9,019 nucleotides of DNA from Candidatus Caldarchaeales archaeon (GCA_039630085.1 JBCNVM010000022.1:1-9019), one strand, 5' to 3'. Shown: positions 1 through 9,019, counted from the first letter of the stretch. Made by a program: numbers and translations. The notes: generated by a model not told the origin, from the letters alone.

Positions 1-2
1 AG

Positions 3-344
3 CCCGGGCTCCTGAGGCTCGAGGTTGCGTTACACGACCTGAAGATCTCGATCACCGACTTCCTTGGAATGCCGGTGCCGTTCGCGGAGGTCTCTGTGAG
101 AGGACAGAAAGAGAGTTCCGTGAGCGCTGACGCGTCTGGAGTGGCTGAGCTCAAAGCAATACCATACGGCCGGTATTCCATGAGGGTATCGTCGCTGTTT
201 GGAAATCTGGAGAAGGAGATCGAGGCGCCGGTCGATGGAGGCAGAATCAACCCGAGGATTCCCGTCTCGCCATACACGCTGGTCCTTTTGGCGGCGGCGA
301 GCGTCTCGATCCCAGCGGTGTTGAGGGGATGGAGAAGAGGATAA
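3..344 (+). CDS. C-terminal part of a cell-surface protein whose 5' end lies outside the window: a carboxypeptidase-regulatory-like (prealbumin-type) beta-sandwich repeat followed by a C-terminal hydrophobic anchor and a basic tail
   Basis: Frame 3 is open from the window edge (PGLLRLEVALHDLKISITDFLG MPVPF...), so the listed 69..344 ORF is only the Met-started tail. The pattern PVPFAEVSV....ADASGVAELKAIPYGRYSMRVS resembles CarboxypepD_reg-like repeats. The protein ends PYTLVLLAAASVSIPAVLRGWRRG* (TM helix plus Arg-rich tail). Codon usage matches the other genes. Confidence 0.6.
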   Translation, partial: PGLLRLEVALHDLKISITDFLGMPVPFAEVSVRGQKESSVSADASGVAELKAIPYGRYSMRVSSLFGNLEKEIEAPVDGGRINPRIPVSPYTLVLLAAASVSIPAVLRGWRRG

Positions 345-624
345 TCATCGCAGCGCTGTTGGGAGCCCTCGTCGGCCTAGGAATACTGGCCGTGATCCCT
401 CCGAATCTGGGCAGGACGACGGTGACTCTGACGGTGACGGCCACGCTGCACGGAGAGATACTGACAATAGTGAGGGGACGACGGAGTACGTCTACGCCGT
501 CAGGACCGTGACGGTCACCCCTCCGGCCGCCCAAGGGAGCGTCCTCGCCGTCCTCGGGTCGGTTTCGTATAACTGCACGTCGTCGGTACTGAGCCTCATT
601 AGGCAACGAGAGGGTCTCAGTTGA
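329..624 (+). pseudogene. Small N-terminally anchored Thr/Val-rich protein split by a frameshift at a G4 run (frame 2 for 329-475, frame 1 for 475-624)
   Basis: ATG 329 overlaps the upstream stop by 16 nt and has GAGGGG just upstream. Frame 2 reads MEKRIIIAALLGALVGLGILAVIPPNLGRTTVTLTVTATLHGEILTIVRG, then RRSTSTPSGP* (stop 509-511). Frame 1 from 475 reads GTTEYVYAVRTVTVTPPAAQGSVLAVLGSVSYNCTSSVLSLIRQREGLS* (stop 622-624), with the same composition and no start codon of its own. The switch point is GGGG at 474-477. Confidence 0.5.
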
Positions 625-870
625 TCCAGAAAAGGACATGCGGACATAGGGGATCGAGCTCGGAACTAGGAGGTTTGGAATATCACGGAAACCCGGTACC
701 CACAGCCCCAGACCTCATGTATAGAATTAACGTCACTAGGAACCGGATAACAGGGATGGTGAAAGACGGCTAATTGCGGGCCCCCTTAAGATCTCATACG
801 AAACTGAGAACGGGAAAAGGGGTAATGGTGACGAATATATGATACTCGAAGTTATGCTAAAACGATTGAC

Positions 871-1255
871 TCAACTGAAGACAGCAATCACATTATAATA
901 GTCGTTCATCGGGATTTCGATTGCATATCCTTGGACCCTTACGTCCTCTATCCACCGGTAGGTTGGGTTGCCGAAGTCGCCGAGCCTGACCACTAAGTTA
1001 GGCACGTAGCTGAGCTCGATAACTCTGTTGATACTCCGCCTAACGGTACAGCTCTCGCTAACAACCGTGTAAGACACACCGGTAAGATCTCTCGGTGGCT
1101 CGGCCTCGATCTTGAAAGTGGAACCACTGGAGTCCGGCCTGTACCCGTAGGCTCACGCGAGGGTCCAATTGGGCGCGGAGATCTTCCCGAAGTGAAGACT
1201 CTTGCTCCCGACCGCGACGATAACAATTCCTAAAGAGCAAGGAGATCGCCAACAT
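871..1255 (-). pseudogene. Decayed ORF in the low-GC island: hydrophobic N-terminus, one frame change, one in-frame TGA, then an intact 68-codon beta-rich tail
   Basis: ATG 1255 gives MLAISLLF. The adjacent frame continues GIVIVAVGSKSLHFGKISAPNWTLA, then TGA (1153-1155), then AYGYRPDSSGSTFKIEAEPPRDLTG, and then the listed 871..1077 ORF (GTG start) VSYTVVSESCTVRRSINRVIELSYVPNLVVRLGDFGNPTYRWIEDVRVQGYAIEIPMNDYYNVIAVFS*. The long frame has no start codon of its own upstream of the TGA. Confidence 0.35.
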
Positions 1256-1354
1256 CGCTAAAAGCCTCGGCGTGTCCGTCAGTTTTGGCTCCGGTGAAAA
1301 ATGTACCGCTTTATTCGGACTGATTGGTTAGAAGACTGACACTCATTCGGCATG

Positions 1355-1383
1355 TGTAAGGTCGTTTCCCTCTTTTCCTTACA
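1355..1383 (-). other. 7-bp hairpin (TGTAAGG / CCTTACA, 15-nt loop) about 25 nt downstream of the tRNA 3' end
   Basis: TGTAAGG at 1355-1361 is the reverse complement of CCTTACA at 1377-1383. Function unknown; it could be a transcript-end structure. The next T5 run on the minus strand is at 1297-1301. Confidence 0.3.
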
Positions 1384-1408
1384 TCGCGCTCTCTGCTCAC
1401 GGAATTTA

Positions 1409-1484
1409 TGCGGCCGGTGGGATTTGAACCCACGATTTCCGGGCCGGAGCCCCGGCGCCTTAGTCCTGGCTTGGCCACGGCCGC
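1409..1484 (-). tRNA. 76-nt tRNA gene, best read as tRNA-Gly(UCC)-like, with a non-canonical anticodon loop register
   Basis: Minus strand: GCGGCCG UG GCCA AGCCAGGACUA AGGC G CCGGG GCUCCGG CCCGG AAAUC GUGGG UUCAAAU CCCAC CGGCCGC A. It has a perfect 7-bp acceptor stem, a canonical T-arm and a perfect 5-bp anticodon stem. No CCA is encoded. G1-C72, C2-G71, G3-C70, A73 and C35/C36 fit a Gly-type tRNA, but the loop has G32 and C33 instead of Y32 and U33. Confidence 0.7.
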
Positions 1485-1502
1485 CGATAGTTTTATCATC
1501 CA

Positions 1503-1516
1503 CTTGGGATATAAAC
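1503..1516 (-). promoter_or_regulatory. TATA-box promoter of the tRNA at 1409-1484 (GTTTATATCCCAAG)
   Basis: On the minus strand the TTTATA hexamer is followed by exactly 25 nt before tRNA position G1 (1484). The 14-nt box is identical to the one at 1719-1732. Confidence 0.65.
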
Positions 1517-1608
1517 CTACGGACTAAGCGCCGAGCAGTGGTCTGCTACATGCAGACAAGGGGTTTTAAGGTTAAACAAAAGCATGGAGTAGACTTATGC
1601 ATCAGGTG

Positions 1609-1648
1609 AACTGATTGACTATCTTAAGGAAAAATAGTAAGATCAGTT
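1609..1648 (-). terminator. Interrupted palindrome plus T5 run that ends the tRNA-fragment unit
   Basis: AACTGAT (1609-1615) pairs with ATCAGTT (1642-1648), and ACTAT (1618-1622) pairs with ATAGT (1634-1638). The minus-strand RNA reads AACUGAUCUUACUAUUUUUCCUUAAGAUAGUCAAUCAGUU, with U5 from 1630-1634. Oligo-T tracts are the usual archaeal termination signal. Confidence 0.45.
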
Positions 1649-1700
1649 GGTTTACGGACCAGAACCCCTGCCGTCCTAGTCCAGGCTAGACGACGGCCGC
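1649..1700 (-). ncRNA. Orphan tRNA 5' fragment (Gly-type acceptor 5' strand, D-arm, degenerate anticodon region) with no T-arm and no 3' acceptor strand
   Basis: Minus strand: GCGGCCG UC GUCU AGCCUGGACUA GGAC GGCAGGGGUUCUGGUCCGUAAACC. It is colinear with the first ~52 nt of the tRNA at 1409-1484 (identical GCGGCCGU, near-identical D-loop, one 1-nt indel). Similarity ends at 1649. Confidence 0.55.
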
Positions 1701-1718
1701 CTTCGTGTTCTTCACCTG

Positions 1719-1732
1719 CTTGGGATATAAAC
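1719..1732 (-). promoter_or_regulatory. Second copy of the GTTTATATCCCAAG promoter box, in front of the tRNA 5' fragment
   Basis: 14/14 identical to 1503-1516. The spacing is the same: 25 nt between TTTATA and G1 at 1700. Confidence 0.6.
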
Positions 1733-1800
1733 TTCCGCGCGAGGCGGCCCATCGATCGGTGCTCCGCGCGGACCCCCGGGCCCGAGAAGTGGGGCGAGAG

Positions 1801-1808
1801 CTTATTGG
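1801..1808 (+). promoter_or_regulatory. Possible TATA-like box (CTTATTGG) for rps26e
   Basis: This is the only A/T-rich element in the GC-rich stretch upstream. It lies about 36 nt before TTG 1840. A GGGTGAG Shine-Dalgarno-like sequence sits at 1829-1835. Confidence 0.3.
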
Positions 1809-1839
1809 GAGGCGCGGACCTGTGCAGTGGGTGAGCTGA

Positions 1840-2124
1840 TTGCCAGCCAAGAGGAAGAACAGGGGAAGGGCAAAGGGCCAGAAGGGCTCCGAGCCGATGA
1901 TTCAGTGCGACAACTGCGGCGCCTTCGTCCCGAGGAGCAAGATCCAGCGGATCACGAGGAGGGTCTCGCTGGTAAGAGGCGACCTCGCGAGGGAGCTGAA
2001 GTCGATGGGCGCTTACATCGCGGAGAACGTCATCACCGAGAACCTCTGCATCTCCTGCGCGATCCACTACGGTGTCCTCAAGGTCAGGGCGAGGGAGGAG
2101 AGGAAGCCGACGGAGTTCGTCTGA
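1840..2124 (+). CDS. rps26e: 30S ribosomal protein S26e
   Basis: MPAKRKNRGRAKGQKGSEPMIQCDNCGAFVP...CISCAIHYGVLKVRAREERK matches the conserved S26e N-terminus and its CxxC...CxxC pattern. The start is TTG, with an in-frame TGA immediately upstream (1837-1839). Confidence 0.9.
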   Translation: MPAKRKNRGRAKGQKGSEPMIQCDNCGAFVPRSKIQRITRRVSLVRGDLARELKSMGAYIAENVITENLCISCAIHYGVLKVRAREERKPTEFV

Positions 2125-2131
2125 GCGGGGC

Positions 2132-2704
2132 TCAGCCGGCCTGGACGGAACTCCTTATCCTGTCCAGGACCTCCTCGAAGTGCTCGGACAGGTTCCTCAG
2201 CGTCTCCAGGTCAGAGGCGCTGAACCTCTTCGCCGCATCCGCTCCCAAGGACTCCGCGTACTCCGCGAGGACCTCCCCGCGGATCCTCGACTCGTCGGGG
2301 AAGACCTCCTCGGAAGCCGGTATCGAGAGCCCGGCGTCGATCGCGCCCTTCACGACCGCGAAGACCCTCGCCCCCTTCGAAGGCGTCCTCATCCCTATGT
2401 CGGCTATCGCCTCCGAGTAGCCCTTGGACCTCGCGATCAGCCCCGCGAGGTAACCGGTGAGGTAGGCGGCCGGAGTGCTCTTCAGACCCGCCCTCCAGCC
2501 GAACCTCCTGAGCGCCGCGGAGTTCACCGTGAAGACGGTCAGGTCGCCTCCGGCCCTTGACTGCACCAGCTGGACGATCACGTGCCTGTTGGTCCTCCTC
2601 ACGACGAGCCTCGGCCTGCCGGACTTGACCATCTTGTACCTCGCCCTGTAGTCCGTCACTCCCTCCCTTCTCCTCCTCGGAGGCCTCCGCTTCAGCTCGA
2701 TCAA
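2132..2704 (-). CDS. rpl18: 50S ribosomal protein L18P (L5e family)
   Basis: The N-terminal RRRREGVTDYRARYKMV motif and overall layout are typical of archaeal L18. TTG is the only start codon between the in-frame stop (2741-2743) and that motif. A GGGGTGA Shine-Dalgarno sequence lies 7-8 nt upstream. The gene starts 7 nt after the rpl19e stop. Confidence 0.9.
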   Translation of the reverse strand: MIELKRRPPRRRREGVTDYRARYKMVKSGRPRLVVRRTNRHVIVQLVQSRAGGDLTVFTVNSAALRRFGWRAGLKSTPAAYLTGYLAGLIARSKGYSEAIADIGMRTPSKGARVFAVVKGAIDAGLSIPASEEVFPDESRIRGEVLAEYAESLGADAAKRFSASDLETLRNLSEHFEEVLDRIRSSVQAG

Positions 2705-2711
2705 CGCGCGC

Positions 2712-3128
2712 TCACCCCCTCTCGAGCTTACCCATCTCGATCAGGAGGTTCCTGATGTCCGCGACGGACTTGAACCGGCCTGCCTTCGCCTGGAGGTAGA
2801 GCTTCCTGTAGGTGCTCCTGTCGATGATCCCGGAGTCCCTGAGCCTCTTCAGGTACCTCCTCTGAGCCCTGACCCGCATCGCCCACCTCTCCTTCCTCGT
2901 GAGGACCGAGTACTTCCCTCCCTTCCTGACCCTGCCCTCCTTGACCCTGAGCCGCGTCTGGCCCTCGACCGGTGCAGCGTAGATCGCGCCCTCCTCGATC
3001 AGCGCCCTCACGTCCTCCCTCGTGATCGCGTCCTCGACGTCCTCGAGCCTCTCGGGGTCGAACCTCACCCTGTTCTCGCCCACCCCCAGCAGGTCCGCCG
3101 CGAGCCTCCTCTGGAGCCTCAGCTGCAT
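2712..3128 (-). CDS. rpl19e: 50S ribosomal protein L19e
   Basis: MQLRLQRRLAADLLGVGENRVRFDPERLEDVEDAITREDVRALIEEGAI is the conserved L19e N-terminus. ATG start. Confidence 0.92.
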   Translation of the reverse strand: MQLRLQRRLAADLLGVGENRVRFDPERLEDVEDAITREDVRALIEEGAIYAAPVEGQTRLRVKEGRVRKGGKYSVLTRKERWAMRVRAQRRYLKRLRDSGIIDRSTYRKLYLQAKAGRFKSVADIRNLLIEMGKLERG

Positions 3129-3156
3129 CTCCTTCCCCGCCAGAGCCCGCTCCCTT

Positions 3157-3165
3157 CTCTTATAC
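3157..3165 (-). promoter_or_regulatory. TATA box (GTATAAGAG) for rpl19e-rpl18
   Basis: About 33 nt upstream of ATG 3128, which implies a leader of only a few nt. GGAG lies directly before the ATG. Confidence 0.5.
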
Positions 3166-3261
3166 GTAGCGAGCCCGCCCGCCTCGAGGCCCCGCGGCCC
3201 GGATCACCGTCACCGACCGCAGCCGAGGGGCGCGAAGTTCCACTCTCTGGAAGGGCAAGGA

Positions 3262-3268
3262 CTATATT
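3262..3268 (+). promoter_or_regulatory. TATA box (CTATATT) for the galU-like gene, leaderless-type spacing
   Basis: The box centre is 26 nt upstream of ATG 3291, in an otherwise GC-rich divergent intergenic region. Confidence 0.5.
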
Positions 3269-3290
3269 CGGTCCGGGACCTGCGACGCCG

Positions 3291-4151
3291 ATGATCAGGA
3301 AGGCGGTGATCACAGCTGCAGGCCTGGGGACGAGGCTGATCCCCTCGACGAAGGAGATGCCGAAGGAGATGCTCCCGATCTACGCCAGGGGCGAGTCCGG
3401 CCCCGTCCTCAAGCCCCTCCTCCAGGTCCTCTTCGAGAAGCTCTTCGACTTCGGGATAAGGGAGTTCTGCTTCGTCGTCGGCAGGGGGAAGAGGGCGATC
3501 GAGGACCACTTCACCCCCGACTGGGAGTTCGTCGAGAGGTTGGAGTCGATGGGGAAGGCGGGGCAGGCGGCCGAGCTGAGGAGGTTCTACGCGATGCTCG
3601 AGAAGTCGGTCACGGTCTGGGTGAACCAGCCCGCACCCCGAGGGTTCGGCGACGCGGTCCTGAGGTCCCGGCCGTTCGTCAACGAGGAGTTCCTCCTCTG
3701 CGCTGGCGACACCTACGTCCACTCGCCCGACAACGGGTTCCTCAGGTCGCTCGAGGCCCTCAGGGCAGACCAATCGTGTGACGCTGCGCTCCTCCTCAAG
3801 TCGGTAGAGGACCCGAGGAGGTTCGGCGTCGCCGTGGTCGAGGACGGCTCCGCCGGCAGGCTGAAGGTCCTGAGGGTGGTCGAGAAGCCCTCGGTTCCCC
3901 CCAGCGACCTCGCCATCCTCCCCTTCTACGTCTTCACGCCGGAGGTCTTCGACGCCCTCGGGTCGATCGGGCCCGGCCACGGCGGAGAGGTGCAGCTGAC
4001 CGACGCGATCCAGCTCCTGATCGAGAGGAGGAGGTCCGTGATGGCCGTCAGGCTCCCCGAGTCCGACGTCTGGCTCGACGTCGGCACTCCCGAGTCCTAC
4101 TTCGAGGCAGTCAGGGTCTCCTACGCGATCGCTGCCGGTGCTGCGCGTTGA
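3291..4151 (+). CDS. galU: UTP-glucose-1-phosphate uridylyltransferase-like sugar-1-phosphate nucleotidyltransferase
   Basis: The N-terminal KAVITAAGLGTRLIPSTKEMPKEMLPI is the GalU-type nucleotide-binding signature; the KEMLP element distinguishes it from RmlA-type enzymes. 286 aa. Confidence 0.8.
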   Translation: MIRKAVITAAGLGTRLIPSTKEMPKEMLPIYARGESGPVLKPLLQVLFEKLFDFGIREFCFVVGRGKRAIEDHFTPDWEFVERLESMGKAGQAAELRRFYAMLEKSVTVWVNQPAPRGFGDAVLRSRPFVNEEFLLCAGDTYVHSPDNGFLRSLEALRADQSCDAALLLKSVEDPRRFGVAVVEDGSAGRLKVLRVVEKPSVPPSDLAILPFYVFTPEVFDALGSIGPGHGGEVQLTDAIQLLIERRRSVMAVRLPESDVWLDVGTPESYFEAVRVSYAIAAGAAR

Positions 4152-5512
4152 GCGGGGCCTCGGGCTCCATCGACGTCACGAGGGTCTCGGTCGTCGGGCT
4201 CGGGTACGTCGGCCTCACGGTCGCCGCGGTCCTCGCCTCGAGGGGCTTCAGGGTCAAGGGGATAGATGTCGACCGGGAGAGGGTCTCGGCGGTCTCCTCC
4301 GGGAGGTGTCCCTTCCACGAGCCGGGGCTCGACAGGCTGGTCAGGAGGTCGGTCTCGAGGGGGACGCTCTCGGCCACGACCGACTACGGCGCGGTCAGGG
4401 AGACGTCGGTCACCTTCGTCACCGTCGGTACTCCCAGCAACTCCGACGGAAGCATCGACCTCAGGTACGTCAGGGAGGCGAGCAGGTCGATCGGCGAGGC
4501 GCTGCGCGGAAAGCCCGACGGCCACTTGGTCGTCGTGAAGAGCACGGTCGTCCCCGGGACCACGGGCAAGGTGGTCGTCCCGGCGCTCGAGTCCTCGAGC
4601 GGGAAGAGGGTCGGAGAGGGGCTCTTCGTCTGCGTCAACCCCGAGTTCCTGAGAGAGGGGTCCGCGGTCAGGGACATGCTCGAGCCCGACAGGATCGTCC
4701 TCGGAGACGCGGGTGACGGGTCCTCGGACATCCTCCTGAAGCTCTACAGGAGGCTCTACCGGAGGAGGATGCCGCAGGTCCTGAAGACGAATTACGTTAA
4801 CGCCGAGCTGATAAAATACGCGAACAACGTATTCCTCGCGGCTAGGGTCAGCCTGATCAACGAGCTCGCAAACCTCTGCCAGCTCATCCCCGGAGCGGAC
4901 GTGAAGGTCGTCGCCGAGGGGATCGGGCTCGACGAACGGATAGGCCCTCACTTCCTCAGGGCCGGGATAGGGTTCGGAGGGAGCTGCTTCCCGAAGGACC
5001 TCAGGGCGATAGTCGCGCTCTCGAGGGAGCTCGGGCACGATCCCAAGATCATGAGGTCGGTCTACGAGGTGAACGCGCTCCAGCCCTCGGTGGTCGTCGG
5101 GATGGCGGAGGAGCTCCTCGGAGAGCTCAGGGGGAAGAGGGTCGCGGTCCTGGGACTGGCCTTCAAGCCGAACACCGACGACGTCAGGGAGTCCCCGGCG
5201 CTGAAGCTCGTGAGGCTCTTCGCGGAGAGGGGCGCGGAGGTCAGGGCCTACGACCCGGCCGCCGGGGAGAACGCGAGGAGGGAGCTCGGGGGCGCGGCGG
5301 AGGTGGTGGGCTCGGTGGAGGAGTGCCTGAAGGGCGCGGACCTCTGCGTCCTCGCCACCGAGTGGGACCAGTTCAGGTCGCTCAGGCCCGAGGACTTCGC
5401 TTCTCTGATGAGGGAGCCCGCGCTGATAGACGGCAGGAGGGTCTACGACCCGAGGGAGTTCTCCGGGAAGGTAAGGTTCAGGGCGATCGGTCTCGGGCCC
5501 TCTGAAAGGTGA
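4148..5512 (+). CDS. ugd: UDP-glucose 6-dehydrogenase family nucleotide-sugar dehydrogenase
   Basis: Contains a VVGLGYVGL Rossmann motif, the GFGGSCFPKD catalytic-Cys motif and LGLAFKPNTDDVRESP. The TTG start overlaps the galU stop (TTGA at 4148-4151). No other start codon precedes the Rossmann motif. Confidence 0.88.
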   Translation: MSGASGSIDVTRVSVVGLGYVGLTVAAVLASRGFRVKGIDVDRERVSAVSSGRCPFHEPGLDRLVRRSVSRGTLSATTDYGAVRETSVTFVTVGTPSNSDGSIDLRYVREASRSIGEALRGKPDGHLVVVKSTVVPGTTGKVVVPALESSSGKRVGEGLFVCVNPEFLREGSAVRDMLEPDRIVLGDAGDGSSDILLKLYRRLYRRRMPQVLKTNYVNAELIKYANNVFLAARVSLINELANLCQLIPGADVKVVAEGIGLDERIGPHFLRAGIGFGGSCFPKDLRAIVALSRELGHDPKIMRSVYEVNALQPSVVVGMAEELLGELRGKRVAVLGLAFKPNTDDVRESPALKLVRLFAERGAEVRAYDPAAGENARRELGGAAEVVGSVEECLKGADLCVLATEWDQFRSLRPEDFASLMREPALIDGRRVYDPREFSGKVRFRAIGLGPSER

Positions 5513-5515
5513 GCC

Positions 5516-6484
5516 TCACTCCACCCCCATCTCGGCCCTCCTGGGCAGGTACCACTCGACGTACCTCCTGACCATCGCGCGCAGGTCCGTCCTCGGGGAC
5601 CACCCGAGCTCCCTCCTGGCCTTGCTGACGTCGCCGTAGCTCTCGAGCGACTCGTGGGGCGCGAGCTCCCTCCTGACTACCTCTACCCTCCTCCCGATCG
5701 CGGCCATCATCTCGTGCGCCAGCTCCTCGACGCTGACGGGCTCCCCCCTGCCGACGTTGTAGGCCTCTCCCCTTCTGCCCCTCTCGGAGGCGAGGACCGT
5801 CGCCTCGACCGCGTCTCCGACGTAGACGAAGTCCCTCGTGGCGGGCCTGAAGACGCCGTCGACAGTCCTGCCGTTCACCTCAACGGCCTGTCCGGAGGTT
5901 ATCCTGTCCGCGAAGACCCTGAAGACGTTGTGGGTCCTGCACCTCTCCCCGACGACGTTGAAGTACCTCACGACGACCGCGTCGAGCCCGTAGTCGGAGG
6001 CGTAACCCCTCACGAGCTCCTCCCCCATCCACTTGCTGAGCGCGTAGGGCCCCTTGGGCTTGGGAGGCATGTCCTCCGAGTGAGGGGGCCTCTGGTCGCC
6101 GTAGACGCTGCTCGACGACGCGAAGACCACCCTCGGCGAGGGCTCGCACCTCCTCGCGGCCTCGAGGACGTTCAGGAGCGCCATCACGTTGTTCTCGATG
6201 AAGGTGTGGGGTTGGAGGAGGCTCAGTCTGTGCGACGACATCGCTGCGAGGTGGAAGACCCTCTCGGGCCCGTGGCTCCCGAAGAGCTGGAAGACCTGCT
6301 CCGCTGACCTGAGGTCTATCAGGACCGGCAACGTCCTGCTAGGGCCGCGCGCTCCGTGGAGCTCCTCCACTTCCCTCAGCGCTATCGAGGGGTGCCCGAC
6401 CGCCAGGACGTCGGCGCCGGAGGCGATCAGCGCCTCAACGAGGTGGCTCCCGATGAAGCCGAACGCGCCCGTAACGATGATCAT
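5516..6484 (-). CDS. NAD-dependent epimerase/dehydratase (extended SDR), possibly a UDP-glucuronate 4-epimerase
   Basis: The true start is MIIVTGAFGFIGSH at ATG 6482-6484 (GxxGxxG right at the N-terminus). ASSSSVYG and YALSK (YxxxK) catalytic motifs are present. The 116 upstream codons of the listed ORF run through a tRNA gene and a promoter. Confidence 0.85.
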   Translation of the reverse strand: MIIVTGAFGFIGSHLVEALIASGADVLAVGHPSIALREVEELHGARGPSRTLPVLIDLRSAEQVFQLFGSHGPERVFHLAAMSSHRLSLLQPHTFIENNVMALLNVLEAARRCEPSPRVVFASSSSVYGDQRPPHSEDMPPKPKGPYALSKWMGEELVRGYASDYGLDAVVVRYFNVVGERCRTHNVFRVFADRITSGQAVEVNGRTVDGVFRPATRDFVYVGDAVEATVLASERGRRGEAYNVGRGEPVSVEELAHEMMAAIGRRVEVVRRELAPHESLESYGDVSKARRELGWSPRTDLRAMVRRYVEWYLPRRAEMGVE

Positions 6485-6508
6485 TCCCGTCCGAGGTCGC
6501 CAGTGCCG

Positions 6509-6516
6509 CATATTAG
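6509..6516 (-). promoter_or_regulatory. TATA box (CTAATATG) for the epimerase gene, leaderless-type spacing
   Basis: The box centre is about 28 nt upstream of ATG 6484. The alternative upstream ATG (6509-6511) lies inside this box. Confidence 0.5.
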
Positions 6517-6583
6517 GATGGCCGGCCGGAGGGCTCCGGTCTCGCCGCGTCGCGGTGTGCCCGATCGCTCGCCTGAAGCAACG

Positions 6584-6687
6584 AGCCCCGGGCGGGACTC
6601 GAACCCGCGACCCCCGGCCTCGACCCTTGAGGTCTTCTGCCTGAAGGCTTACCAAGCCGGTGCTCTGACCAGCTGAGCTACCGGGGC
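6584..6687 (-). tRNA. tRNA-Thr(GGU) with a 30-nt intron in or next to the anticodon loop
   Basis: GCCCCGG UA GCUC AGCUGGUCA GAGC A CCGGC UUGGUA[A GCCUUCAGGCAGAAGACCUCAAGGGUCGAG] GCCGG GGGUC GCGGG UUCGAGU CCCGC CCGGGGC U. All four stems are perfect and the discriminator is U73. With canonical 37/38 placement, exon 1 is 6650-6687, the intron 6620-6649 and exon 2 6584-6619. No CCA is encoded. Confidence 0.88.
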
Positions 6688-6712
6688 GCCGGTCTCTGAT
6701 CGACCCGCCCTC

Positions 6713-6719
6713 AATATTA
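6713..6719 (-). promoter_or_regulatory. TATA box (TAATATT) for tRNA-Thr
   Basis: The proximal edge is about 26 nt from tRNA position 1 (6687), the same geometry as at the two tRNA-like units at 1484 and 1700. Confidence 0.55.
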
Positions 6720-6807
6720 GTTTGCCCGGGTATGAAGACAATATCCTTAGGAACACGTCCGCGGGTCCTCTGTCTAGCTCTACTTAAGATTTTTGACAGT
6801 TTAATAG

Positions 6808-6814
6808 TTATATA
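6808..6814 (+). promoter_or_regulatory. TATA box (TTATATA) for the Thr/Val-rich surface protein gene
   Basis: The box centre is 26 nt upstream of ATG 6837, in an AT-rich divergent intergenic region. Confidence 0.55.
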
Positions 6815-6836
6815 GCAATTTTTGTAAAGCAAATCA

Positions 6837-7850
6837 ATGGTGATTGGGACCGGAAGGGCCGTTCTTCTCCTTTCGACGATCTTGGTCCTAGCTCTCGGGT
6901 TGATCTACCCTGTGCTCAACGCGACCACGGTAACTAGAACCGTCACAACGACCGTCGTGTCTCCCGGGACGACGTTCGTCACGGTCGTAACGGCTCAGGG
7001 CAGCACGGTGTCGCTTCTCATCGAGATGCCTCGTGTCAGAATGGTCATGAGCGTCGAGGTGCAGGACCAGGTCTGCGTCGTGAGGTTCGCAGCTAGAGAG
7101 CAACCATCTGTGATCTCCTTCGCCGGCACGACAATTACTTTCCCGGGCACCACGGTGACCTACGTGGTCAGCTCGCCCTTCTCAACAGCGATAACCACAG
7201 CGCTCCCCACACGTGTCACCACCACAGGCTACATCCAAGTGGAGACGGTGACCACGATGACCGCCGGTTTCGTAACGGTAGTCTTCACGTATCCCCTGTC
7301 GATTTACGGTGTCATCGAGGAGGCCTGCAACCTAGCCTATCAGATATCCAGGCTGAGGTTCGAACCCGAGCGGCTTCCCGCGACGTTCGTCTTCGCGATG
7401 GCTGGACAGACCTTGACTGTACCGGGCTTCACGATGACCCTCGATCCCGGAATGATGCCGAACGTCAGGCTTACGACGACCTTCACCACGACCAAGAAGG
7501 GTGAAACCGAGGTCGTCACCACTACCATTCCTGCCACGACCGTCTCCATGTTGACAATCATCCCAGGGACCACCAGGACAACCACCGTCGTTCGGCCGGG
7601 CACCACGATCACGACCACGACGGTCATCACAACTGTTCTGGCCGATACCACTCCACCACCGACGCCGACTCCTACGCCAACTCCTACACCTCGACCGACA
7701 CCGACACCAACCCCCACACCCACACCTACGCCGACGCCGACCAGGACCGAGGCACAACCACTCGATGTCTCGATGCTGCTCCCCATCATAGCCGTCGTGA
7801 TCGCGGTCGTCGCGGTGGGAGCCTTGCTGGCCCTCAGGCGTCGCCGGTGA
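6837..7850 (+). CDS. Secreted or surface-anchored Thr/Val-rich protein with an N-terminal signal/anchor, a (Thr-Pro)n stalk and a C-terminal TM helix plus RRRR tail
   Basis: The N-terminus is MVIGTGRAVLLLSTILVLALGLIYPVLNATTVTRTVTTTVV. The body is rich in T/V beta-strand-like runs with repeated PGTT motifs. It continues TTPPPTPTPTPTPTPRPTPTPTPTPTPTPTPTRT and ends LLPIIAVVIAVVAVGALLALRRRR*. The opposite-strand ORFs are mirror artefacts (GVGVGV...). Confidence 0.8.
   Translation: MVIGTGRAVLLLSTILVLALGLIYPVLNATTVTRTVTTTVVSPGTTFVTVVTAQGSTVSLLIEMPRVRMVMSVEVQDQVCVVRFAAREQPSVISFAGTTITFPGTTVTYVVSSPFSTAITTALPTRVTTTGYIQVETVTTMTAGFVTVVFTYPLSIYGVIEEACNLAYQISRLRFEPERLPATFVFAMAGQTLTVPGFTMTLDPGMMPNVRLTTTFTTTKKGETEVVTTTIPATTVSMLTIIPGTTRTTTVVRPGTTITTTTVITTVLADTTPPPTPTPTPTPTPRPTPTPTPTPTPTPTPTRTEAQPLDVSMLLPIIAVVIAVVAVGALLALRRRR
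7647..7746 (+). repeat. Imperfect hexanucleotide (ACN CCN)n tract encoding the Thr-Pro stalk
   Basis: About 16 Thr-Pro units. All four Thr and all four Pro codons are used, interleaved (acg ccg act cct acg cca act cct aca cct ...), so the DNA repeat is much less perfect than the peptide repeat. Confidence 0.8.
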
Positions 7851-7871
7851 GGCTTCCCTCTCCTGACAAGC

Positions 7872-7877
7872 TTTTTT
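7872..7877 (+). terminator. T6 tract: candidate terminator for 6837-7850 and/or a TATA-like element for 7901
   Basis: AAGCTTTTTTGATG lies 22 nt after the stop at 7850 and about 26 nt before ATG 7901. Confidence 0.4.
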
Positions 7878-7900
7878 GATGAGACAACCGGTCAGACTAC

Positions 7901-8332
7901 ATGGACGAGTACGTCAACAGGGCACTCGACGCCTGTGCTAGGGTCATGGCCGAACCCAGCGTTAACGCTATAAGGGTTCTGATCGACTCGCTGCGGGTCC
8001 TCTCGCCTCCCGGGATCGAGTGGGGAGTCGAGCTCCTGGACGTCGCGGGGACTAGGTACGTGCTCGAGGGAGGCAGGTTGACGGTGGTTAAGCTCTCCAG
8101 GGACGAGTTCGGGCCGTTCATGCGGACGCAGGTGAGGGCGATCGAGCCCGAGGACGTTCCGGAGGAGGTGCTGAAGGTCCTCCTCAGGGACCCCAGGGGC
8201 CTGATCTCCTCGATCGCGGACCAGCTCGAGAGGTGGACCCGGACAGCCCACCCGAACCTGGAGCTAAAGGAGAGGGTGAGGGAGCTGGTGAGGGGTCTGC
8301 GGGAGCTACTTCAGGATCCCGTAGGACCTTAG
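7901..8332 (+). CDS. Hypothetical protein, 143 aa, with no recognisable motif
   Basis: ATG start. Codon bias matches neighbouring genes. The composition is helix-rich and sensible (MDEYVNRALDACARVMAEPSVNAIRVLIDSL...LKERVRELVRGLRELLQDPVGP). The competing minus-strand ORFs are Arg/Pro-rich shadows. Confidence 0.65.
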   Translation: MDEYVNRALDACARVMAEPSVNAIRVLIDSLRVLSPPGIEWGVELLDVAGTRYVLEGGRLTVVKLSRDEFGPFMRTQVRAIEPEDVPEEVLKVLLRDPRGLISSIADQLERWTRTAHPNLELKERVRELVRGLRELLQDPVGP

Positions 8333-8755
8333 GGTCTCCTCGGTCTTCTGCCTGCCGTACTCGGTCAGCTTGTAGCTCTTCGGCCCCTCTCCGGACTCGA
8401 CCGAGGCCACCATTCCCTTCAGCTCCTCGTAGAGCTTCTTGTCGAGCCACTCCTTCGTCACCTCCTTCCCCAGCTCTTTGCTCCTCTGGTTGATCCTCTC
8501 CTTCGAGAGCGGCCCCTCGTAGTAGAGGAGGACCAGCACCACGTCCCTGTAGCTCATCCTCGGGAGCCTCTCCACCAGCTCCCTCGGCATCGCCTGCTGC
8601 CTCGCCACCGGCACCGCGACCTGCTGCCACCTCGAGAGCTCCTCGAACGCCTCCCTCACCGCCCTCAGCACCTCCCCGAGCTCGCTCCCCCTCACCCTGA
8701 TCCTGACCTCCGGCGAGACCGTGACCTCGATCTCCAGCTCGACGTCCCTCTCCAT
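8306..8755 (-). CDS. Hypothetical protein with a C-terminal winged-helix-like DNA-binding domain (putative transcription regulator), 149 aa
   Basis: The start is placed at MERDVELEIEV (ATG 8753-8755). It is supported by the TATA box at 8798-8804 and a GGGTG Shine-Dalgarno sequence about 8 nt upstream. The C-terminal SYRDVVLVLLYYEGPLSKERINQRSKELGKEVTKEWLDKKLYEELKGMVASVESGEGPKSYKLTEYGRQ looks like a PadR/MarR-style wHTH with a wing. Confidence 0.65.
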   Translation of the reverse strand: MERDVELEIEVTVSPEVRIRVRGSELGEVLRAVREAFEELSRWQQVAVPVARQQAMPRELVERLPRMSYRDVVLVLLYYEGPLSKERINQRSKELGKEVTKEWLDKKLYEELKGMVASVESGEGPKSYKLTEYGRQKTEETLRSYGILK

Positions 8756-8797
8756 CTGGTGCACCCTTCGCGCCGCGCCCCCGATTCCGGCTGGTGG

Positions 8798-8804
8798 ATT
8801 TAAA
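8798..8804 (-). promoter_or_regulatory. TATA box (TTTAAAT) for the wHTH gene
   Basis: It lies about 46 nt upstream of ATG 8755, which implies a ~20-nt leader carrying the Shine-Dalgarno-like GGGTG. It lies inside the N-terminal extension of the listed 8306..8851 ORF, which argues against that extension. Confidence 0.5.
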
Positions 8805-8816
8805 GGTGGAGTACAC

Positions 8817-8874
8817 GGTCGCCCGAAAGTGGTCACCTTCGCAGGGACCACGGCAACGCGTTGACCTCGTGACC
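8817..8874. promoter_or_regulatory. Array of GGTC / GACC tetramers forming nested inverted repeats in the divergent intergenic region (candidate operator)
   Basis: GGTC occurs at 8817 and 8831; GACC at 8846, 8863 and 8871. GTGGTC (8829-8834) is the reverse complement of GACCAC (8846-8851). GGTCAC (8831-8836) is the reverse complement of GTGACC (8869-8874). Confidence 0.3.
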
Positions 8875-8930
8875 CGGGCCATCTCTGCGGGTCGGGGCGT
8901 TCGTCCGGCGAGGGCTCACAGCGTCAAGCC

Positions 8931-8936
8931 TTTTTA
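8931..8936 (+). promoter_or_regulatory. Possible TATA-like box (TTTTTA) for the gene starting at 8964
   Basis: About 30 nt upstream of GTG 8964. Confidence 0.3.
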
Positions 8937-8963
8937 CCACAGCGGTGACGCTCTAAGTCGGGA

Positions 8964-9019
8964 GTGACGCAGGAGCTGAAGAGGGAGCTGCTGAGGCTGC
9001 TGAAGGAGGACGAGGAGTT
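8964..9019 (+). CDS. 5' end of a CDS running off the window (VTQELKRELLRLLKEDEE...)
   Basis: The frame opens after TGA 8946-8948, and the first start codon is GTG 8964, preceded by GGGAG. The charged heptad-like sequence and codon bias are consistent with coding. Only 18 codons are visible. Confidence 0.35.
   Translation, partial: MTQELKRELLRLLKEDEE

Follow-up and report, generated by a model that had tools for sequence, protein, structure and literature searches.

The 9,019-nucleotide (nt) stretch of DNA analyzed here, called the window below, is an entire contig of a metagenome-assembled genome (MAG) from a Caldarchaeales (Aigarchaeota) archaeon. Its locus-tag prefix is ABDH63, its left-end protein is ABDH63_07265 and the genomes nearest to it are those of Calditenuis-like Aigarchaeota. 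Between the gene for ribosomal protein S26e and a complete tRNA-Gly(UCC) gene, designated tRNA', the window contains the 5' part of a tRNA with a promoter box of its own, referred to as the stub. The contig ends 1.4 kb past tRNA', and the other flanking genes comprise those for L18/L5e and L19e, a sugar-nucleotide operon and an intron-containing tRNA at 6584-6687. The features of the locus are collected in Table 1, the coordinates of the stub and of tRNA' being those of the minus strand. According to the analysis reported below, the stub (1649-1732) is probably the displaced 5' end, together with the promoter, of the original tRNA-Gly(UCC) gene of this lineage, which recombination of the mobile-element type would have left at the site.

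Table 1. Features around the tRNA-Gly(UCC) stub and the gene downstream of it.
Feature	Coordinates	Strand	Basis or remark
Ribosomal protein S26e gene	1840..2124	+	Pfam PF01283 on the identical Logan gene; divergent from the stub; synteny anchor for relatives
Stub promoter box, TATA-like GTTTATAT + CCCAAG	1719..1732	-	Orthologous boxes precede the intact genes in L004 and L005
Cluster of three single-nucleotide polymorphisms (SNPs)	1717..1723		Two in the stub box, one adjoining
Native 5' part of tRNA-Gly(UCC), nt 1-31	1670..1700	-	Acceptor 5' strand, D-arm, first anticodon-stem bases
Diverged tRNA-like remnant, anticodon arm and variable loop	1649..1669	-	Alignments to the native gene and to the downstream tRNA
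AU-rich imperfect palindrome/hairpin, 7 bp + 8 bp	1609..1648	-	Fold -11.6 kcal/mol, z = -4.05
AT-rich spacer	1517..1608	-	No homologue in relatives; read as inserted/foreign DNA
tRNA' promoter box	1503..1516	-	Exact second copy, 18 nt upstream of G1
Complete tRNA-Gly(UCC), tRNA'	1409..1484	-	ARAGORN; Rfam 53 bits
ORF-poor, partly AT-rich stretch past tRNA'	345..1408		No detectable homologues; candidate degraded mobile-element DNA

The box GTTTATATCCCAAG occurs exactly twice in the window, at 1732-1719 and at 1516-1503. When up to three mismatches were allowed, no further match was found in the window, 0.11 being expected by chance. In both units the distance from the box to the first nucleotide of the tRNA sequence, G1, is 18 nt; G1 is followed by GCGGCCGT, and the spacer by GCGGCCGU. 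With G1 at 1700 in the stub and at 1484 in the full tRNA, the two units are offset by 216 nt, the stub lying upstream. A preliminary description of the locus, made from the sequence alone, had pointed out that the promoter-to-G1 spacer has diverged between the units; this is correct, although the identical positions number 7 of 18 and not about 8. The promoter of the third tRNA of the window (upstream of 6687) lacks the box, which is therefore a sign that the two Gly units are homologous and not a general promoter element.

The D-arm of the stub (GUCUAGCCUGGACUAGGAC) is normal, and the stub can be aligned with the full tRNA through the D-arm, the anticodon arm and the variable loop as far as about nt 52 (position 1649), where the homology ends. 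In the distal part, 1649-1669, the anticodon position reads UCU and the stem strands do not pair; this remnant is approximately 70% identical to the native gene described below and likewise to the downstream tRNA. The stub has neither a T-arm nor a 3' acceptor strand, and no such relic was found elsewhere in the window. tRNA calling around the stub returned the downstream gene alone, and Rfam gave no match on the stub even at E≤10. The unit described in the preliminary account was thus found again in all its parts, with the exact 14-nt box present twice, the equal spacing, the acceptor strand GCGGCCG, the D-arm and the homology to about nt 52, and the missing T-arm and 3' acceptor strand were indeed absent from the window.

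Beyond the end of homology lies the AU-rich palindrome. It had been described with a U5 tract following it, and whereas the palindrome itself is real, the T5 run (1634-1630) is situated within the 5' arm and the loop of the hairpin, not 3' of it. Archaeal transcription terminates at oligo-T, and the hairpin with its T5 run is likely to act as the oligo-T stop for a stub transcript, the run being located about 66-71 nt from G1. The palindrome is possibly also a recombinase-binding site. To judge from the intact TATA-type promoter and the T5 run, the stub is probably still transcribed into a short RNA that would not form a tRNA and would have no role. A scan of the spacer for C/D-box small RNAs (sRNAs) gave no candidate.

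The orthologous locus in relatives was sought with S26e as the bait: the GTDB species genomes yielded 46 loci and the JGI metagenomes 53; more were added by exact-protein look-up, and the comparison covered 116 related loci in total. Exact-protein look-ups of S26e, L18 and L19e led to one Logan sample only. Two Logan contigs, both from sample SRR28200751, tile the window: L101 corresponds to 1-1701 and L001 to 1673-9019.

An S26e-tRNA arrangement was observed in one group of relatives only, consisting of L004 (= L102), L104, L106, L103 and L105 from one species and L005 from another. In the relatives with this synteny, a complete, unsplit tRNA-Gly(UCC) is present as a single gene at the position of the stub. 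The orthologous promoter boxes, GTTTATATCTCGAG in L004 and GTTTATATTTCAAG in L005, precede these genes with the same 18-nt spacing. The first 31 nt of the stub are identical to the L004 gene at 31 of 31 positions and to the L005 gene at 29 of 31. Furthermore, the homology with L004/L102 is unbroken from the S26e side (1850) through the promoter to about 1662, after which it is lost for the rest of the contig; the synteny break thereby falls inside the anticodon stem of the tRNA sequence. The intact orthologue in relatives and this break together identify the stub as the lineage's original S26e-linked tRNA-Gly(UCC), interrupted within the 5' strand of its anticodon stem. By the same comparison, the box at 1719-1732 would be the native archaeal promoter box of that ancestral gene, now expected to drive the stub alone. 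The truncated form of the stub was seen in none of the 116 related loci, and the tRNA-Gly synteny at S26e in none of the metagenome loci L048-L100.

The S26e locus of the closest Calditenuis relatives (L002, L003 and the P0037 loci L107-L116) is uninformative on the stub, as SufBD and not tRNA-Gly precedes S26e there. These loci encode the most similar S26e protein, and the gene that follows S26e in them is alanyl-tRNA-synthetase-like, in place of L18. Such differing neighbours indicate that the gene order around S26e has been rearranged within the family.

The two parts of the stub differ sharply in their conservation. The intergenic DNA between S26e and the tRNA, taken as neutral, is 79.7% identical between the window and L004, and at this identity the chance of 31 unchanged positions is about 0.001. 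As 31 unchanged positions are improbable at neutral divergence, the 5' part was either constrained until recently or refreshed by conversion. In the next 23 nt, by contrast, seven mismatches and a gap separate the stub from the native gene (0 of 31 versus 8 of 23 differences, Fisher p = 5e-4). Compared with the downstream tRNA, the same stretch has 17 of 23 positions identical, by manual count from the alignment. It has a GGGG run and the AAA of the variable loop in common with the downstream copy, and GC at 27-28 and U33 in common with the native gene. This pattern fits a junction between native and foreign sequence at about nt 31, rather than uniform decay of a duplicated gene. From these alignments, the segment 1649-1669 is probably a tRNA-like arm of incoming DNA, comparable to an attP arm, and not decayed native sequence.

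The same data bear on a simpler origin, in which the promoter and the 5' two-thirds of the resident tRNA were duplicated in tandem and the upstream copy then decayed. Direct repeats with the same box, spacing and acceptor strand are what such a duplication would produce. However, it is the upstream copy, not the downstream one, that is the orthologue of the relatives' gene by its 31 of 31 identity and its S26e synteny, and the relatives have a single gene. The downstream copy differs moreover in its D-arm and T-arm, in the spacer (7/18) and in the region upstream of the box (11/28), and on account of this divergence between the units a tandem duplication was rejected as extremely unlikely.

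The complete gene tRNA' has its own distinctive features. Its D-arm pairs GCCA with AGGC (GCCAAGCCAGGACUAAGGC), where the stub has GUCU and GGAC, and its T-stem is GUGGG/CCCAC against CCGGG/CCCGG in relatives. Upstream of the box, the tRNA' unit is identical to the native unit at 11 of 28 positions. With the same anticodon but a differing D-arm, T-arm, spacer and upstream region, tRNA' did not arise by recent tandem duplication and is a replacement copy. The anticodon loop is GCUCCGG, with G32 and C33, and the gene has no intron; to our knowledge, U33 is almost universal in tRNAs. By these features, tRNA' may be an element-borne or partly impaired tRNA. Its D-arm is also Leu/Ser-like, with an A13·A22 mismatch. 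A tRNA with a similar T-arm in L054/L055 was considered and set aside, since it is not a tRNA-Gly (acceptor GGGGCCG, not GCGGCCG); from its sequence it looks like an intron-containing tRNA-Pro.

The DNA on this side of the break is distinguished by its composition, with a GC content of about 0.48 in the 200 nt from 1501 to 1700 compared with at least 0.6 in the flanking genes. Both flanks of tRNA', namely the 216-nt spacer and about 1 kb on its downstream side, are richer in AT, poor in ORFs and lack homologues in related loci, plasmids, phages and viral contigs. No BLAST match was obtained for the spacer 1517-1608 in the 116 related loci, in plasmids or in phages, or by blastn for the segment 330-1700 against plasmid and phage collections. 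Exact patterns for the tRNA' D-arm, the tRNA' 3' half, the stub junction and the native 5' part each gave 0 matches in the IMG/VR viral contigs. Among all small open reading frames (ORFs) in 1-1830, searches with Pfam and PHROGs recognized a CarboxypepD_reg domain at the contig end only. Two possible degraded genes were noticed in the ORF-poor stretch. The first (329-640) comprises a signal/TM-like ORF of 60 aa (329-511), apparently continuing in another frame, and the second (871-1255) an ORF of 68 aa (871-1077) that extends upstream across an in-frame stop; for both ORFs, the sole match among 5.8 billion proteins was their own Logan copy.

In sister genomes, the orthologous tRNA-Gly adjoins head-tail provirus genes, as seen in L102/L104 and in L005. 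Directly downstream of the tRNA, the block L102 1-7023 encodes a portal protein, a scaffolding protein, a tube or minor tail protein and a neck/HK97-gp10-like protein. It also encodes two 58-aa proteins and a 329-aa protein without a family match, which we read as occupying the capsid position, and it possibly includes a histone-fold protein. The proximal part of this block is found in L005 1-800, with about 80% nucleotide identity between the sister species. No integrase or attachment (att) site was reached in the examined part of the L102/L005 provirus block. The strains and species also differ at the tRNA gene proper. In L004 (5773-5861, = L102 7773-7861), the tRNA-Gly(UCC) has a 12-nt intron after the anticodon, and in L005 (872-947) it has none; from the 3' end of the tRNA to the next gene, L004-type strains have an AT-rich addition of about 670 nt, which L005 lacks; and Logan contigs break inside the tRNA (L103) or exactly at its 3' end (L105). 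On these comparisons of sequence, the locus is a recombination hot spot.

The identity of the two boxes within the window had been taken, in view of the diverged spacer, as a sign of selection on expression. This interpretation was not supported when the window was compared with the contigs from SRR28200751. L101 is 100% identical to window positions 1-1701, and over its 7,347 nt L001 differs from the window at three positions only, 1717, 1721 and 1723. The corresponding region reads GTTTATATCTCGAGCG in L001, with the ancestral CTCGAG as in L004, and CCCAAGCA in the window, which at 1721 and 1723, the two box positions, equals the downstream promoter copy. Functional orthologous promoters vary at these same box positions. 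Since L001 carries the ancestral box, the 14/14 box identity is strain-specific and unstable within the population. The clustering of the SNPs suggests a brief tract of gene conversion between the two repeats, which are separated by 216 nt, and the box identity is best explained by such a patch rather than by selection.

These observations also weigh on the idea that the stub is a stable tRNA-half-like sRNA, regulatory or acting as a decoy, whose promoter and 5' 31 nt have been kept by selection. An intact promoter, a T5 run after about 70 nt, a predicted hairpin and a 5' part without a single change in 31 positions are all compatible with it. Nevertheless, this explanation is improbable: the predicted 71-nt stub RNA folds at shuffle level (z = -0.33), conservation of the truncated form was found in none of the related loci, a recent event, or conversion from other tRNA-Gly genes, would account equally well for the unchanged 5' part, and the three positions at which L001 differs from the window all lie within or beside the box.

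L001 and L101 overlap by 29 nt (1673-1701) and thereby support both sides of the join. As this overlap is tRNA-Gly 5' sequence, the sequence is present more than once in the community, most simply in other tRNA-Gly genes. The join might be an assembly chimera formed at a repeated tRNA-Gly 5' sequence of about 30 nt, in which the S26e side would come from an intact gene and the truncated remainder from another locus. Two independent Logan contigs that end and start exactly on the 29-nt overlap, a branch of the graph, and an L001 promoter haplotype differing from that of the window would agree with this. On the other hand, reads, and the larger k-mers used in assembling MAGs, readily extend across a repeat of 30 nt, and the two box SNPs are most simply explained by conversion between repeats that are physically close. 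We regard a chimera as very improbable indeed, and even with a false join the truncated tRNA-like piece would still be present on L101 at 1649-1701.

Split tRNA genes are known from Nanoarchaeum equitans and Caldivirga maquilingensis, including a tri-split tRNA-Gly; their halves are the sole source of the tRNA, and a complementary trailer and leader form a bulge-helix-bulge (BHB) motif. The stub could in principle be a functional 5' piece of this kind, its first ~28 nt being joined in trans, by splicing endonuclease and ligase, to a separate 3' piece. Like these genes, it is a stand-alone 5' unit with a promoter, and tRNA-Gly is among the known split species. It forms a separate unit that carries only the 5' part of a tRNA behind a TATA-type box with predicted promoter activity. 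The intact box and a perfect first 31 nt with a diverged remainder suit such a function, the adjacent full tRNA with its odd C33 loop might be defective, and the 5' 29 nt occur at least twice in the assembly graph of SRR28200751, where the contigs break. In addition, stubs of this type have been proposed as precursors of split tRNAs (PMC3293823).

Unlike in the genes of N. equitans and C. maquilingensis, however, a complete gene with the same anticodon lies 216 nt away, no partner or motif was found in the window, and the gene is unsplit at this site in all relatives that share the S26e-tRNA-Gly synteny. The anticodon region is UCU with a damaged stem, and strains that are otherwise nearly identical differ in the promoter. 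When the window was searched for a leader complementary to the trailer, the best duplex (-36.8 kcal/mol) was no more stable than those of shuffled sequences (mean -37.9 kcal/mol). In the 301-nt read-through transcript, a strict hBHBh' pattern matched six times, where shuffles gave 6.1 matches, and no match was compatible with a tRNA; the sensitivity of this search was low, as the pattern also missed the known intron-containing tRNAs serving as controls. A chimeric tRNA made of the stub and the 3' half of tRNA', as a shared 3' exon, was rejected, its stems being unpaired and no BHB being present. On the evidence of the window and of the relatives, a functional split half is very unlikely. A related proposal sees the stub as a tRNA gene in the act of splitting, which would still be transcribed from its native promoter, with the intact first ~28 nt used in trans together with a separate 3' piece, or as a stable half-like RNA, beside a C33 tRNA-Gly that is poor or non-functional; this too we consider very unlikely.

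Recombination at the native gene was among the origins that had been suggested for the stub, and it is the one upheld by the intact gene in relatives, the synteny break in the anticodon stem, the full tRNA 216 nt downstream and the provirus genes of the relatives. In the window, an incomplete tRNA copy and a complete tRNA gene point in the same direction. In the proposed sequence of events, foreign DNA would have recombined into the native gene in the 5' strand of the anticodon stem, after nt 31 (approximately canonical position 28). Besides starting with a tRNA-like anticodon-arm segment, like an attP arm, the incoming DNA would have brought in, or restored, a complete tRNA-Gly(UCC) gene 216 nt downstream that has a promoter of its own; the 3' part of the native gene would have been displaced elsewhere or lost. 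The involvement of a site-specific recombinase and the order of these events are inferred.

Several points count against this origin. First, the segment between the stub and the full tRNA amounts to merely 216 nt, and no integrase or mobile-element gene was recognized in the window by Pfam and PHROG searches of the ORFs in 1-1830. No exact core of the att type is detectable at the junction; the 14-nt box and GGCGGCCGT are the longest blocks in which the units are identical, and at the breakpoint GGGG alone is common to both units. Second, the 3' half of tRNA' is unlike the native 3' half of the relatives. Because it is non-native, a single simple integration on the 5' side, as described in PMC3293823, is insufficient, and it must be assumed that tRNA' is wholly foreign or that the gene was rebuilt by elements on both sides or in more than one event. 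The displaced native 3' part was not found within the window, in which the contig ends 1.4 kb beyond tRNA'. Furthermore, with its non-canonical C33, tRNA' is only a putative competent replacement, and a perfect promoter with a perfect first 31 nt would also be expected of a functional 5' piece.

A comparable locus has been described in the same phylum. In Caldiarchaeum subterraneum, tRNA-Thr-F is a 5' fragment of tRNA-Thr(GGU), comprising nt 1-27 and the native upstream sequence, that accompanies tRNA-Thr-II (Sugahara et al. 2012, PLoS One, PMC3293823). It lies 1.8 kb upstream of the full tRNA-Thr, with a 1,868-bp insertion containing a putative recombinase and a repeated 545-bp region, and other population clones have an undisrupted tRNA-Thr gene (PMC3293823). 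The authors explained it by the site-specific integration of a pNOB8-like element at the gene's 5' part and subsequent homologous recombination, and they proposed that split tRNAs could arise from such stubs (PMC3293823). A 5' half next to a full-length paralogue, which the preliminary description had held to be unusual, has therefore been known in Aigarchaeota since 2012.

The two loci agree in the direct orientation, in the full tRNA of the same anticodon downstream and in the undisrupted gene elsewhere in the clade or population. In both, the fragment ends near the boundary of the D-arm and the anticodon stem, at nt 27 in C. subterraneum and at about nt 28-31 here. They differ in the identity of the tRNA, Gly(UCC) instead of Thr(GGU), and in the intervening DNA, which is 216 nt without an ORF in the window and 1,868 bp with a putative recombinase in C. 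subterraneum. The full tRNA also differs, being divergent in both halves and without an intron here, whereas that of C. subterraneum has the native 3' part and an intron added by the element.

More generally, elements with tyrosine recombinases (SSV-/pNOB8-type in archaea) give rise to partial tRNA duplications at attL/attR; their sublocation classes are those of Williams 2002, cited in PMC6563490. The locus resembles these duplications in its partial copy in direct repeat, its breakpoint in the anticodon stem, its AT-richer foreign flank and the provirus at the tRNA of relatives. It departs from them in that usually the 3' part is duplicated, whereas here the 5' part with its promoter was stranded, the rarer 5'-distal type; nor is an integrase gene or an exact att core detectable in the window. 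Integration of the 5'-distal type into tRNA-Ser of C. subterraneum, by CalSub-E1, was reported by Krupovic et al. 2019 (PMC6563490). Thaumarchaeal att sites are short, with a median of 17 bp and lengths down to 8 bp (PMC6563490).

The window locus is thus most likely a further example of a kind of scar already known in this archaeal group. It would provide a second independent case, in another genus and with another tRNA, of the process of tRNA fragmentation put forward by Sugahara et al., whose model was built on a single locus. It is useful in offering an intact ancestral gene in sisters, a breakpoint placed within a few nt, a replacement tRNA and a strain-level conversion patch. It also gives a warning for annotation, as promoter-bearing tRNA stubs at integration hot spots can resemble split-tRNA halves. 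Otherwise the scar is an ordinary one, unless expression and a partner in trans are demonstrated. If the stub did represent splitting, the range of split tRNAs would extend for the first time beyond Nanoarchaeota and Thermoproteales, and the sister genomes would show the intact ancestor of the gene.

Two other features of the window, away from the stub, deserve mention. The gene at 6584-6687 on the minus strand is read by ARAGORN in intron mode, on L001, as a tRNA-Thr(GGU) with a 30-nt intron, the same tRNA species as that disrupted in C. subterraneum. Rfam reports a 32-nt insert in the window; ARAGORN without intron mode missed the gene in the window. The introns of its orthologues in L004 and L005 are 26 nt long and of a different sequence. 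On the plus strand, 6837-7850 encodes a predicted surface protein rich in Thr and Val, with a terminal (Pro-Thr)n linker followed by a C-terminal membrane anchor, the linker being encoded by a degenerate 12-nt tandem repeat at 7650-7741.

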